Source: an uncultured Eubacterium sp. (GTDB lineage Bacteria > Bacillota > Clostridia > Lachnospirales > Lachnospiraceae). From it: DNA of 64,000 nt. This document shows positions 11,899 to 15,281 of this stretch, in pieces. Where the stretch lies: positions 441 to 64,440 of the forward strand of contig CANDMV010000004.1 of assembly GCA_947385875.1 (NCBI GenBank), written 5' to 3'. The notes below the pieces were generated by a model that worked only from the letters and a program-made list of their open reading frames with translations, ran no database searches and was not told where the DNA came from. Positions within the stretch are counted from its first letter, which is position 1. Every line of letters begins with the position of its first letter. The translations under genes and the position numbers were made by a program.

Positions 11899-13869
11899 AT
11901 GAGCAGTAAGGGAAAATTTTATATGACAACGGCGATTGCATATGCATCAGGAAAACCGCATATTGGCAATACTTATGAGATTATACTGGCAGACGCGATT
12001 GCGCGTTTTAAGAGGCAGGAAGGGTATGATGTATTTTTCCAGACAGGGACGGACGAGCATGGCCAGAAAATCGAACTGAAGGCACAGGAAGCAGGGATTA
12101 CACCAAAAGAATATGTAGATAAAGTCGCTGATGAGATCAAAAGAATATGGGATTTGATGAATTGCTCTTATGATAAATTTATCCGAACAACGGATGAATC
12201 CCACGAAAAGCAGATTCAGAAGATTTTTAAAAAATTATATGATAAGGGTGATATTTATAAAAGTTCTTATGAAGGACTGTATTGTACGCCGTGCGAATCT
12301 TTTTGGACGGAGTCTCAGCTGGTGGATGGAAAATGTCCTGACTGCGGGCGTGAAGTAAAGCCTGCAAAGGAGGAAGCATATTTCTTTAAAATGAGTAAAT
12401 ATGCGGACAGACTCATTGCTCATATTAATGAGCATCCAGAATTTATACAGCCGGTATCCAGAAAAAATGAGATGATGAATAATTTCCTGCTGCCGGGGCT
12501 TCAGGATCTATGTGTATCCAGAACCTCTTTTAAATGGGGAATTCCGGTGGATTTTGATGATAAGCATGTGATTTATGTATGGCTGGATGCGCTGGCAAAC
12601 TATATTACTGGTATTGGTTATGAATGCGATGGAAATTCGACAGAGCAATTCGCAAAAGACTGGCCGGCTGACCTGCATTTGATTGGGAAGGATATTATCC
12701 GGTTTCATACGATTTACTGGCCTATTTTTCTTATGGCTTTGGATCTGCCGCTGCCGAAACAGATTTTTGGTCATCCGTGGCTGATTCAGAGTGATGGCAA
12801 GATGAGCAAGTCAAAAGGCAATGTACTGTACGCAGATGAGTTATCAGACTTTTTTGGAGTGGACGCGGTTCGATTTTTTGTGCTGCATGAGATGCCGTTT
12901 GACAATGATGGGCTGATTTCCTGGGAGCTGATGGTAGAACGCCTGAATTCTGAACTGGCGAATACGCTTGGCAATCTGGTAAACCGGACGATTTCTATGA
13001 GCAACAAGTATTTTGGCGGCATTGTAGAGTCTACGGGTGTGACAGATGAAATGGATGCAGATTTAAAAGCTGTTGTAACAGGTACGGCTGGAAAGGTGAC
13101 AGCTAAAATGTCAGATCTGCGTGTAGCTGACGCTATTACAGAAATATTTAATCTGTTTAAACGCTGTAATAAATATATTGATGAGACGACTCCGTGGATT
13201 CTTGCAAAAGAGGAGTCTTCTAAGCCGCGTTTGTCAGAGGTAATGTATAATTTAGTGGAAAGCATTACGATTGGGGCGACTTTATTGCAGAGCTTTATGC
13301 CGGATACTGCTGAGAAGATTTTTGCGCAGCTGAATACATGCAGCGTACCGTTTGAATGTCTGGAGTCATTTGGAAACTATAAAAGTGGCACAAAAGTGAC
13401 AGCTAAGCCTGAGATTTTGTTTGCCAGACTGGATATCAATGAAGTCATGGAGCGTGTGAATGTGCTTCATCCGGCTGCTGAAGCAAAGGAAGAGGCAGCA
13501 GTGGAAGAAAACTGTGAAAATGTGATTGATATAGAACAAAAAGATGAGATTACATTTGATGATTTTGAAAAAATGCAGTTTCAAGTAGGTGAGATTATTG
13601 AGTGTAAAGCTGTGGAAAAGTCTAAGAAGCTGCTGTGCTCACAGGTAAAAATAGGAAGCCAGGTAAAACAGATCGTATCTGGAATCCGTAAGCACTATAC
13701 GCCGGAAGAAATGGTTGGAAAAAAAGTAATGGTATTGGTTAACCTAAAACCGGCAAAACTGGCTGGGGTATTGTCAGAGGGAATGTTACTGTGTGCAGAA
13801 GATGCAGACGGCAGGCTTGCGTTGATGACGCCGGATCGGCCGATGCCTGCTGGGGCGGAGATCTGTTAA
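11899..13869 (+). CDS. metG: Methionine--tRNA ligase with C-terminal tRNA-binding OB domain
   Basis: YASGKPHIGN, CTPCESF/CPDCG zinc knuckle, KMSKS, C-terminal LKPAKLAGVLSEGMLL. Confidence 0.98.
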   Translation: MSSKGKFYMTTAIAYASGKPHIGNTYEIILADAIARFKRQEGYDVFFQTGTDEHGQKIELKAQEAGITPKEYVDKVADEIKRIWDLMNCSYDKFIRTTDESHEKQIQKIFKKLYDKGDIYKSSYEGLYCTPCESFWTESQLVDGKCPDCGREVKPAKEEAYFFKMSKYADRLIAHINEHPEFIQPVSRKNEMMNNFLLPGLQDLCVSRTSFKWGIPVDFDDKHVIYVWLDALANYITGIGYECDGNSTEQFAKDWPADLHLIGKDIIRFHTIYWPIFLMALDLPLPKQIFGHPWLIQSDGKMSKSKGNVLYADELSDFFGVDAVRFFVLHEMPFDNDGLISWELMVERLNSELANTLGNLVNRTISMSNKYFGGIVESTGVTDEMDADLKAVVTGTAGKVTAKMSDLRVADAITEIFNLFKRCNKYIDETTPWILAKEESSKPRLSEVMYNLVESITIGATLLQSFMPDTAEKIFAQLNTCSVPFECLESFGNYKSGTKVTAKPEILFARLDINEVMERVNVLHPAAEAKEEAAVEENCENVIDIEQKDEITFDDFEKMQFQVGEIIECKAVEKSKKLLCSQVKIGSQVKQIVSGIRKHYTPEEMVGKKVMVLVNLKPAKLAGVLSEGMLLCAEDADGRLALMTPDRPMPAGAEIC

Positions 13870-13962
13870 GGCAGATTCATGTGGAATGTATGACCGCAAT
13901 TTCATCCGACATGTATAAAGTCAAAAAACGGAAAGCTGAACGGGTAGTATAACCAAAATGGC

Positions 13963-13997
13963 AGGCCGGGAATCTTAATAGGTTCTCGGCCTTATTT
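13963..13997 (+). terminator. Terminator after metG
   Basis: AGGCCGGGAATCT/AGGTTCTCGGCCT stem followed by TATTT. Confidence 0.7.
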
Positions 13998-14163
13998 AAA
14001 AGTATTTAACAACTTATGTGAGATATGTAGAATGCTAATTACAAGCAGCATCCAACGTTTCATTTTGGCTAGATGGACGGTTAGGCGGTAGAGTCACGTC
14101 AGAGCAGCAATGCTCTGTTGATCTGATAGATACCCTTGCTAAGAAAGGAGGGTGATAGAAGAA

Positions 14164-14265
14164 GTGACATTTTGCGAATTACTAATATTTACGTCAGTAA
14201 CTGGCATTGTCAGCGGAGTAATATCAGCGTACATAGTAAGATTTCTGGATAGAGCACAAAAATAA
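14164..14265 (+). CDS. 33-aa hydrophobic peptide, candidate type I toxin (Fst/Ldr-like architecture)
   Basis: GTG start after AAAGGAGGGT; MTFCELLIFTSVTGIVSGVISAYIVRFLDRAQK*: one TM helix and a charged tail. Confidence 0.8.
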   Translation: MTFCELLIFTSVTGIVSGVISAYIVRFLDRAQK

Positions 14266-14297
14266 CCGCCGTGAGAAATAATGCGGTCATTTTTGTG
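14255..14297. terminator. Bidirectional terminator overlapping the peptide stop codon
   Basis: CACAAAAAT-AACCGC...GCGGTC-ATTTTTGTG, with A-run on one side and T-run on the other. Confidence 0.75.
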
Positions 14298-14356
14298 TTA
14301 ATATTCATTTATTAGCCATTAATCTACAAATTATGGCTCAATCGTCTAACGGTATA
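14258..14356 (-). ncRNA. Candidate antisense antitoxin RNA (~100 nt)
   Basis: Minus-strand TTGACA (14391-14386)-N17-TAATAT (14368-14363) promoter, no ORF, ending at a hairpin with a T-run. Confidence 0.65.
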
Positions 14357-14504
14357 AATATTATATTAAAGGAATCATATGCTGTTGTCAATAAATATTT
14401 CTATTGTAATTTTCCCTATAACAATTTAGAATAATAGCTTAGGCAGTGCCTAAATGGATTGTTACAATTTATAAATAAAATAGTATTTAAAAGGGGTTCG
14501 TGAT

Positions 14505-15281
14505 ATGATATTTGAAACACATGCGCATTATGAAGATAAAAAATTTGATCTTGACAGGGATGAGCTGCTGACATCTATGTCTTTGAATGGAATCTCACCG
14601 ATTGTCAATGTAGGCTCTTCGATAGAAACTACGAAGAAGAGTATCGAATTGGCAGAAAAATATGATTTCATCTATGCAGCTGTCGGCGTACATCCAAGTG
14701 ATATTGAATGTCTGAGTGAAGATGGCATGGAATGGCTCCGCAGGCAGGCTGAACACCCGAAAGCTGTAGCCATTGGGGAGATTGGACTGGATTATTACTG
14801 GGATAAGGAGGAAGATGTGCAGGAGAAGCAGCGTTATTGGTTTCGAAGACAGCTGGAGTTGGCGAAGGATGCAGGGCTTCCGGTTATTATTCATTCCAGA
14901 GATGCCGCAGAAGATACGCTGTCGATTATGAGGAATGCATATGAAATGCAGATCACAGGTGTCATTCACTGCTTTTCTTATTCAGCAGAAATCGCACAGG
15001 AATATGTAAAAATGGGGTATTATATTGGTGTGGGCGGTGTCGTCACATTTAAAAATGCGAAAAAGCTCAAAGAAGTTGTGGAAAAAATCCCTTTGGGAAA
15101 AATATTGCTAGAGACCGACTGCCCGTATATGGCGCCAGAGCCGTTTCGGGGGAAACGGAACAGTTCAATTTATCTTACTTATGTAGCAGACAAAATAGCG
15201 GAACTAAAGGACGTGACGCGGCAGGAGGTAATCGATGTGACAAGGCAGAATGCGTACCATATGTATCGAATAGAAGAATAA
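14505..15281 (+). CDS. tatD: TatD family hydrolase
   Basis: ETHAHY, GVHP, GEIGLDYY, IHSRDA, HCFS, ETDCPY motifs. Confidence 0.96.
   Translation: MIFETHAHYEDKKFDLDRDELLTSMSLNGISPIVNVGSSIETTKKSIELAEKYDFIYAAVGVHPSDIECLSEDGMEWLRRQAEHPKAVAIGEIGLDYYWDKEEDVQEKQRYWFRRQLELAKDAGLPVIIHSRDAAEDTLSIMRNAYEMQITGVIHCFSYSAEIAQEYVKMGYYIGVGGVVTFKNAKKLKEVVEKIPLGKILLETDCPYMAPEPFRGKRNSSIYLTYVADKIAELKDVTRQEVIDVTRQNAYHMYRIEE

Follow-up and report, generated by a model that had tools for sequence, protein, structure and literature searches.

A previously undescribed, prophage-associated predicted toxin and antisense RNA in mouse-gut Lachnospiraceae

Between the metG and tatD genes of an uncultured Eubacterium sp. (Lachnospiraceae), a segment of about 400 nucleotides (nt) is predicted to encode a small membrane peptide on one strand and a short, convergently transcribed RNA on the other. 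It lies at 14000-14395 of the 64,000-nt stretch of DNA that was analysed (contig CANDMV010000004.1 of assembly GCA_947385875.1, positions 441 to 64,440; referred to as the window). We consider this segment to be a solitary chromosomal copy of a type I toxin-antitoxin (TA) module that operates by the mechanism proposed below, and we put the probability of this reading at roughly 0.7. The module is a previously undescribed, prophage-associated pair of predicted toxin and antisense RNA of mouse-gut Lachnospiraceae. By its architecture, as read from the sequence, the locus is of the type I TA kind, and its predicted toxin forms a family distinct from the curated ones. A preliminary description of this DNA had put forward a type I TA candidate, a proposal now supported by a coding signature in the toxin open reading frame (ORF), covariation in the leader, a conserved convergent promoter and a reciprocal strand asymmetry of G·U pairs.

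Type I TA systems are almost uncharted in the dominant Firmicutes of the gut, since gene callers miss their peptides and Rfam misses their RNAs. The family described here supplies a defined peptide, a leader model and an antisense RNA for the Lachnospiraceae and their prophages; such modules probably stabilise lysogens.

Results

All six features listed in the preliminary description are present at its coordinates. The window copy was compared with 37 other copies, whose sources were its own genome, other species of its genus, genomes of Lachnospiraceae (about 12) and viral contigs (30), and by this comparison most of the features are under selection. These had been gathered by an exact-pattern scan with one 26-nt pattern covering the Shine-Dalgarno (SD) module, which returned 13 loci in the genome contigs (among them Eubacterium sp. 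14-2, Roseburia sp. 1XD42-69, Kineothrix and Lachnospiraceae metagenome-assembled genomes) and 30 in IMG/VR viral contigs.

The ORF of the window copy (MTFCELLIFTSVTGIVSGVISAYIVRFLDRAQK) runs on the plus strand from a GTG at 14164 to a TAA at 14263-65 and encodes 33 amino acids, with one transmembrane helix and a basic tail, as the preliminary description had stated. The peptides of the other copies have 37-43 residues with the same single helix and basic tail. Among 28 distinct units they were diverse yet alignable, e.g. MTFCELLIFTLVTGIVSGVISAYIVRFLDKRHKNNRHEK, MTFVVEFIIGILGRIVSGLFTTYIVRLVDKFTHKNDRHE, MIRDALEILIPGIVSGVTSTYIVRVIDILLHKNNRHE and MIICELIADIVIGVISSYIVKFIDKKRKNNRHE. The entropy at codon positions 1, 2 and 3 amounted to 0.87, 0.43 and 1.09 bits, and 61% of the single-nucleotide codon differences were synonymous. 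This signature indicates that the ORF evolves as a protein under purifying selection. The stem of the terminator lying across its stop codon doubles as coding sequence for the conserved KNNRHE tail. We infer that the peptide is a membrane toxin.

The best scores obtained with models of curated toxins were 13-15 bits, against cutoffs of 26-60. Weak but recurrent, these best matches were to type I toxin models: 14.3 bits with Pfam Ldr_toxin (cutoff 27), 14.4 bits with NCBIfam type_I_tox_Fst (cutoff 26) and, in 12 of 22 members, 13-15 bits with NF047374, the model of C. difficile type I toxins (best E = 0.0016, cutoff 60 bits). One member, DAH30140.1, carries the label 'toxin' in nr. The earlier suggestion that the peptide represents a distinct family agrees with these results, all scores in Pfam, NCBIfam, PHROG and Rfam being below threshold.

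Weaker relatives of the peptide, with the core VAGVISHYICKWLD, were found in other Lachnospiraceae genera, accompanied by anti-SD hairpins of their own and by convergent promoters of the extended -10 type. Six loci in other genera of the family (L013, L018, L020, L028, L029, L031) encode peptides of 28-32 amino acids of the form M..VVAGVISHYICKWLD(R/S)D... The anti-SD/SD hairpins of these loci read CCACTCCCC...GGGAGGGG, their terminators are strong, and on the opposite strand a convergent extended -10 element (TATGCTATAATG) is conserved. Peptides of this type probably represent a wider superfamily of type I TA loci, so far unannotated, to which the window peptide is related.

The predicted toxin mRNA starts with a structured leader. 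Its promoter, TTAACA-N16-TAGAAT at 14006-14033 on the plus strand, has 10 of 12 consensus positions and a predicted transcription start site near 14040, which gives the window copy a leader of about 120 nt. All 37 other units scanned have a promoter with 11-12/12 or 10/12 at the same place. When the plus-strand RNA 14040-14356 (317 nt) was folded, it gave a z score of -4.3, with hairpins at 14056-79, 14100-17 and 14131-54 and a long-range helix joining 14080-96 to 14334-50. In the first of these hairpins (HP1, 14056-14079), found in the minimum free energy (MFE) fold and through covariation, the loop UGGCU (14066-70) is nearly invariant. The second, CAGAGCA-GCAA-TGCTCTG (14100-14117), is a 7-bp stem closed by a GNRA loop. 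The third, at 14131-14154 in the MFE fold, pairs UACCCUU (14131-37) across a 10-nt loop with GAGGGUG (14148-54), and thereby sequesters the SD sequence AGGAGGGT (14146-14153). The preliminary description had proposed that an upstream strand hides the SD; the stem is there, and the GCT that had been counted as part of that strand is in the loop.

The long-range helix, with its 5' strand GUUAGGCGGUAGAGUCA at 14080-14096 and its 3' strand at 14334-14350 in the 3' untranslated region (UTR) of the toxin mRNA, comprises 16 bp, of which 3 are G·U, and one mismatch. It is indicated by the MFE fold, by covariation and by G·U bias. In other copies it is extended by an outer helix: the 5'-terminal segment ACAAGCAGCATCC (14041-14053 in the window) pairs there with GGATGCTGTTTGT, about 330 nt downstream. 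Finally, GUCAC at 14093-14097 is an alternative partner of GUGAC at the start codon (14164-68), for which covariation also argues.

These structures were assessed in an alignment (A3) of 28 copies, extending from the predicted transcription start to the 3' U-tract. The proposed structure was paired at 93.9%, versus 42-49% in slid controls. Pairs changed on both sides numbered 20, as compared with 11.6±2 in shuffles, none of 500 of which reached 20; since many of the copies are related, independent changes are fewer than the counts of alignment cells suggest, and distinct positions or versions are given where possible. In the outer long-range helix (the first 13 nt with GGAUGCUGUUUGU, about 330 nt downstream), 7 of the 13 pairs showed compensatory changes and 93.4% were paired. 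The corresponding values were 3 pairs and 95.6% for the HP1 helix, and 5 of 7 pairs and 100% for the GNRA hairpin, which the preliminary description had noted and which covaries in a second family as well. The start-codon helix GUCAC:GUGAC was paired in 100% of cases, through C-G, U·G and U-A states, the U-A state occurring in a copy with an AUG start (L051). Covariation likewise backs the pairing of CGGTTAGGCGG in the leader with TCGTCTAACGG downstream that had been predicted from the window alone.

The other pairing proposed at that time, of TGGCTA (14066-71) with TAGCCA (14313-18), is not supported. Both sequences exist, yet the only informative changes were uncompensated (L033) or inconsistent. 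TGGCU is the loop sequence of a hairpin that covaries, and TAGCCA belongs to the stem of the hairpin in the antisense RNA. A further candidate, the invasion of the anti-SD strand by the 5' end (GCAAG with CUUGC) in the manner of the tac-like activator of hok, was rejected on the grounds that the 5' motif varies among copies.

G·U pairs were used to assign each helix to its strand. The downstream partner of each leader arm was reverse-complemented and aligned with that arm, and the transitions were classified, a procedure that is blind to the strand; the arms were aligned segment-wise, as local alignment across a 26-nt leader insert was too noisy. In the long-range helices, transitions left a G·U pair on the plus strand in 84 cases and on the minus strand in 4 (64 versus 3 among unique versions), and in helix 1 G·U was seen at 12 of 13 positions. 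The terminator stem next to the ORF and the adjacent AGCCAU/AUGRCU hairpin behaved in the opposite way, with no G·U on the plus strand and 7 unique versions with G·U on the minus strand. If a mutational strand bias were the source of this asymmetry, adjacent helices should be biased alike. Yet they show opposite bias, and this explanation was discarded. The reciprocal, strand-specific asymmetry indicates that the plus-strand mRNA passes the ORF-proximal hairpin and folds back on its own 5' end, and that a minus-strand RNA terminates at this hairpin. Selection thus appears to maintain two RNAs, a read-through, fold-back toxin mRNA and an antisense RNA of about 100-130 nt over its 3' tail. The read-through to 14352 that had earlier been supposed gains backing from both covariation and the plus-strand G·U bias. 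In full copies the plus-strand RNA is expected to extend to a 3' U-tract, GGAUGCUGUUUG.

The hairpin across the toxin stop codon (14255-14297, minus strand) consists of ACCGC/GCGGT with A- and T-tracts. It had been described as a bidirectional terminator. The hairpin is present and in the window copy looks like a plus-strand terminator as well, but across the family G·U pairs occur on the minus strand only. The minus-strand tail reads AUUUUUG in 25 of 28 copies, whereas the plus-strand tail varies (ATTAATG, ATTTATG).

On the minus strand, the promoter TTGACA-N17-TAATAT (14391-14363) matches 10 of 12 consensus positions and would drive an RNA of about 100 nt, from about 14356 to about 14255. 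A minus-strand promoter of at least 10/12 with a 17-nt spacer was found at a constant position in 71% of units, versus 8% of shuffles. Folding of the RNA 14357-14252 (106 nt) yielded a z score of -4.8 and a single-stranded 5' part, a stem-loop and the terminator. In the stem-loop, AGCCAU...AUGGCU (14314-14338), A-U and U-A pairs replace one another in a compensatory manner and G·U is confined to the minus strand; the single-stranded 5' part is the complement of the very stretch of the toxin 3' UTR that supplies the 3' strand of the long-range helix. The promoter is as the preliminary description had it, and the RNA has no conserved ORF. A coding role was considered and rejected, the minus-strand ORFs varying in frame and length among copies. 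One of them, a 32-codon ORF in the window (MNINTKMTALFLTAVIFVLYPEILLCTLILLR, 14210-14308, minus strand), lies within and beyond the antisense RNA, is unconserved in frame and length, and is probably fortuitous.

A second family of viral loci (L045, L046, L047, L053, L056, L059, L066, L070 and L073; IMG/VR) has the SD/anti-SD and GNRA core in common with the module, the rest being different; its features lie from about 150 nt upstream to about 330 nt downstream of the SD pattern. It has a closing helix GUCGCA:UGCGAC, its own complementary 5'-3' clamp sequences with plus-strand U·G pairs, and an ORF-proximal hairpin with a minus-strand bias. A canonical plus-strand terminator follows right after the clamp, which supports the long-mRNA reading. 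Its conserved ORF (..DTYTIVNDSNLLSTIVAGTILMFLQNIVPTKKDR) lacks an ATG, GTG or TTG start close to the SD; an ATA stands at the equivalent position and is overlapped by a 10-codon upstream ORF.

Sequence comparison indicates that a sigma-70-type promoter drives an mRNA for a peptide of 33-43 amino acids with a single transmembrane helix and a basic tail, and that its translation start is doubly locked, by the anti-SD/SD hairpin and by the helix of the leader GUCAC with the GUG start codon. It further indicates that this mRNA passes the ORF-proximal hairpin and that its first ~13 nt and a 14-17-nt leader segment pair 250-330 nt downstream, closing a clamp. The unpaired 5' part of the antisense RNA is a perfect complement of the 3' strand of the clamp, and as such it carries the leader's own sequence. 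On this basis we propose the following mechanism. The fold-back mRNA would represent a stable, translationally inert store. The antisense RNA acts on it through its unpaired 5' part. This part may invade the 3' UTR and displace the leader; the freed leader would clamp the start codon, the 5' end would be left exposed, and the long duplex would be cut by RNase III. The outcome would be repression and decay of the toxin mRNA, as brought about by SR4 on bsrG. Upon loss of the module or prophage, the short-lived antisense RNA would disappear and the stored mRNA would be translated.

Binding of the antisense RNA was modelled by masking the 3' UTR in partition-function folds of 7 copies. Masking lowered the accessibility of the start codon in 6 of them (for instance from 0.81 to 0.01 and from 0.50 to 0.01; from 0.36 to 0.20 in the window copy), and the SD stayed sequestered. 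The exposure of the 5' end rose in 5 of the 7 copies; it was unchanged in L006 and went from 0.99 to 0.79 in the window copy, where the 5' end is already free because the outer clamp partner is deleted.

In most relatives of the same genus, metG and tatD keep their synteny and are separated by about 100-160 nt. In the window, metG (11899-13869) has its own terminator at 13961-13999, tatD starts at 14505 and the spacer measures 635 nt, which makes the module an insertion of about 400 nt. A unit of about 350 nt recurs at 81-88% identity at unrelated sites, including the same genome, which has 3 copies. The further two (C70:508-874, L006/L075; C13:134-262, L008/L076) both adjoin tRNA-Lys(UUU) genes and ordinary chromosomal genes, and no integrase or phage genes were found near them. 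The C13 copy keeps the promoter and the leader up to the SD and has lost the ORF. Within the genus, 4 of 22 species have the module. A covariance model of the SD/GNRA core (R1), run on 22 genomes of the genus and on 400 genera of the family, found no further divergent copies, with few candidates scored per genome and hence limited sensitivity.

In viral and metagenomic contigs, the module stands beside the 3' end of a convergent tyrosine integrase gene (PF00589), with Bro-N/ANT anti-repressor genes on the opposite side, neighbours that place it in the lysogeny region of prophages. The adjacency to the integrase is fixed in L048, L050, L052, L055, L057, L067 and L100-L105. A blastn search against 50,697 GenBank phages left the module unmatched. 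As far as these genomes and contigs tell, the family occurs in a few mouse-gut Lachnospiraceae and more often beside the integrase of their prophages. The position beside the integrase suggests a role in prophage stabilisation, as has been shown in C. difficile (PMC7699646).

Discussion

The module shares features with several known type I systems. As in par/Fst of the Enterococcus faecalis plasmid pAD1, its promoters converge, and a terminator hairpin common to both genes lies across the toxin gene's end. Both systems encode a GUG-initiated transmembrane peptide of about 33 amino acids that has the motif (P/T)XXXG and ends in a charged tail, and in both an intramolecular stem-loop sequesters the SD while a helix hides the extreme 5' end (PMC7472228); the upstream helix at the 5' end of par RNA I is a functional parallel to the clamp (PMC7472228). 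The motif appears as TXXXG in the window peptide (TSVTG; PLVIG in relatives). At the position of the signature Trp of the Fst/Ldr superfamily the window peptide has Phe, distant Lachnospiraceae relatives read KWLD, and Fst itself has Val (PMC7472228). However, par/Fst has direct repeats (DRa/DRb), whereas those of the module are inverted; its antisense RNA therefore reads in the sense of the leader and is unable to base-pair at the translation start. Furthermore, the 5' end of the module mRNA pairs with the 3' UTR past the hairpin, while that of par/Fst pairs nearby. Since direct repeats are absent, the cutoffs of the Fst and Ldr hidden Markov models were not reached and a profile search of the PDB did not find Fst, we do not file the module as Fst.

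With the type I systems of C. difficile prophages (CD0977.1/RCd11 and CD0956.2/RCd10 among others), the module has in common clostridial hosts, a prophage location, a convergent arrangement with the antisense RNA over the toxin 3' region, an AGGAGG SD, and a peptide with a hydrophobic N-terminus and a basic tail (PMC7699646). It fails the curated NF047374 test, its peptides are shorter than the C. difficile toxins, and the passages of PMC7699646 consulted make no mention of a 5'-3' clamp there. bsrG/SR4 and txpA/RatA of Bacillus subtilis also have an antisense RNA on the 3' side that overlaps the 3' end of the toxin mRNA; their peptides and RNAs are unrelated to those of the module. Binding of SR4 at the 3' end of the bsrG mRNA tightens a distant SD helix and promotes decay (PMC3834814). 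Thus bsrG remodels its SD helix, whereas the predicted switch of the module is a leader segment freed from the 5'-3' clamp onto the start codon. The likeness that the preliminary description drew to known type I loci therefore stands for the 3' overlap of the Bacillus and C. difficile systems but fails for par in the key feature, its repeats being direct rather than inverted.

An inert, full-length toxin mRNA closed from 5' to 3' is known from hok/sok (fbi-tac) and aapA1/isoA1 (PMC5416894, PMC8594479). These systems are Gram-negative and have no sequence relation to the module, and the antisense RNA of hok and aapA1 binds the 5' region of a 3'-processed mRNA, whereas that of the module covers the 3' strand of the clamp. 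The hallmarks that define type I toxin mRNAs (PMC8594479) match those of the module, which resembles a combination of the 3'-overlapping Bacillus/C. difficile layout with a fold-back of the hok/AapA1 type. It joins a 5'-3' clamp and a 3'-overlapping antisense RNA, known so far from separate systems, and makes the clamp the target of the antisense RNA.

A bolder proposal goes beyond this, and we advance it tentatively, as a whole it being rather doubtful. The antitoxin might be a leader mimic that, through the same ~30 nt, acts by strand displacement on the mRNA clamp, opening the 5' end for decay and handing the leader segment to the start codon; the module would then also define a wider, unannotated toxin superfamily of Lachnospiraceae and their prophages, with the core ..VSGVISxYIV(R/K)(F/W)LD. 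We know of no description of a leader-mimic antitoxin among type I systems.

Several points weigh against reading the segment as a type I TA module that works as proposed. No model in Pfam, NCBIfam or PHROG scored above its cutoff with the peptide, and the profile search of the PDB missed Fst, its matches being only spurious ones to PTEN. At a permissive threshold, Rfam returned chance matches to small nucleolar and small RNAs in 13500-15000, with no antitoxin family near its gathering score. The SD hairpin was invariant in every copy, which is uninformative because the copies were collected with that very pattern. The direction of regulation, i.e. whether opening of the clamp represses or activates, comes from thermodynamic modelling, in which one of the 7 copies went the opposite way. 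Toxicity, both transcripts and the RNA-RNA interaction are predictions from sequence. The remaining points concern the window copy itself. Its -35 box is weaker, TTAACA instead of the TTGACA of other copies; a 2-nt deficit shifts the frame, so that the tail K-R-x-H-K-N-N-R-H-E-K is replaced by AQK; and a 37-nt deletion has removed the outer clamp partner and the 5' hairpin of the antisense RNA, bringing the antisense promoter beside the inner clamp. The locus can therefore not be called complete, as it had been. The ORF-proximal hairpin of the window has in addition a good plus-strand T5 tract and also resembles a plus-strand terminator, so that most toxin transcripts may stop there before reaching the clamp partner.

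With the outer clamp half and the conserved tail lost, the window copy may be attenuated or decaying. A stronger version of this view, in which the family is a genuine type I TA family and the window copy a decaying, non-functional relic, would be a sub-case of the type I reading. This erosion speaks for it, as do the ORF-less orphan leader (C13) in the same genome and a scrambled remnant in the same spacer of one relative. Yet an intact ORF follows a strong SD, the transmembrane core is unchanged, and Fst can do without its charged tail (PMC7472228). The two window promoters still score 10/12, the SD lock is retained, and neither the 16-bp inner clamp nor any of the antisense RNA is broken, both folding well. 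We give a non-functional relic a minority chance.

We also considered the possibility that the module is not a toxin-antitoxin system at all. The peptide could be a non-toxic small membrane protein of prophages (for lysogeny, exclusion or as a holin-like accessory), with a structured leader and a cis-antisense RNA merely adjusting its expression. The position beside the integrase in the lysogeny region would suit such a protein, as would the failure of all toxin models to reach threshold and the weak PHROG matches to holins. However, a triple lock of SD hairpin, start-codon helix and 5'-3' clamp, combined with a dedicated convergent small RNA, is the signature of a type I toxin mRNA (PMC8594479) and is rare for harmless genes; a multi-copy, patchy occurrence with eroded copies is typical of addiction modules; and the best of the weak matches are type I toxins. 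We hold this explanation to be unlikely. Alternatively, the arms, which are inverted repeats, could be the terminal repeats of a non-autonomous element resembling a miniature inverted-repeat transposable element, the RNA features being incidental. This would account for a unit of ~350-400 nt at unrelated sites, with homology that stops at the two promoters. If the repeats served at the DNA level, their substitutions should be symmetric, yet adjacent helices showed opposite strand-specific G·U asymmetry. Moreover, the helix begins at the predicted transcription start, the ORF has a coding signature, neither a target-site duplication nor a transposase was seen, and phage contigs have the module in a fixed place beside the integrase. 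This explanation is very improbable, and a type I TA module remains the reading that we prefer.

The reciprocal G·U asymmetry shows the functional strand of each helix without a transcriptome, and the approach can be reused for other overlapping convergent RNAs. Compact modules similar to the one described here have provided markers for counter-selection in C. difficile (10.1101/2020.03.04.976019) and portable devices for RNA-based regulation (PMC12721322).

Other features of the spacer

In one relative of the same genus (L089 in G006, 944-1501), the metG-tatD spacer is 557 nt long and GC-rich and contains TTCTGTGAATTACT ('VVFCELLFLVAL'), which is likely what remains, in scrambled form, of a related toxin ORF in this chromosomal position. 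In the window, a hairpin at 14438-14468 (TTAGGCAGTGCCTAA) scores as a minus-strand terminator and overlaps a promoter-like sequence, TAGGCA-N17-TACAAT (with TG), directed at tatD. This hairpin would screen the module from transcripts arriving from the tatD side.

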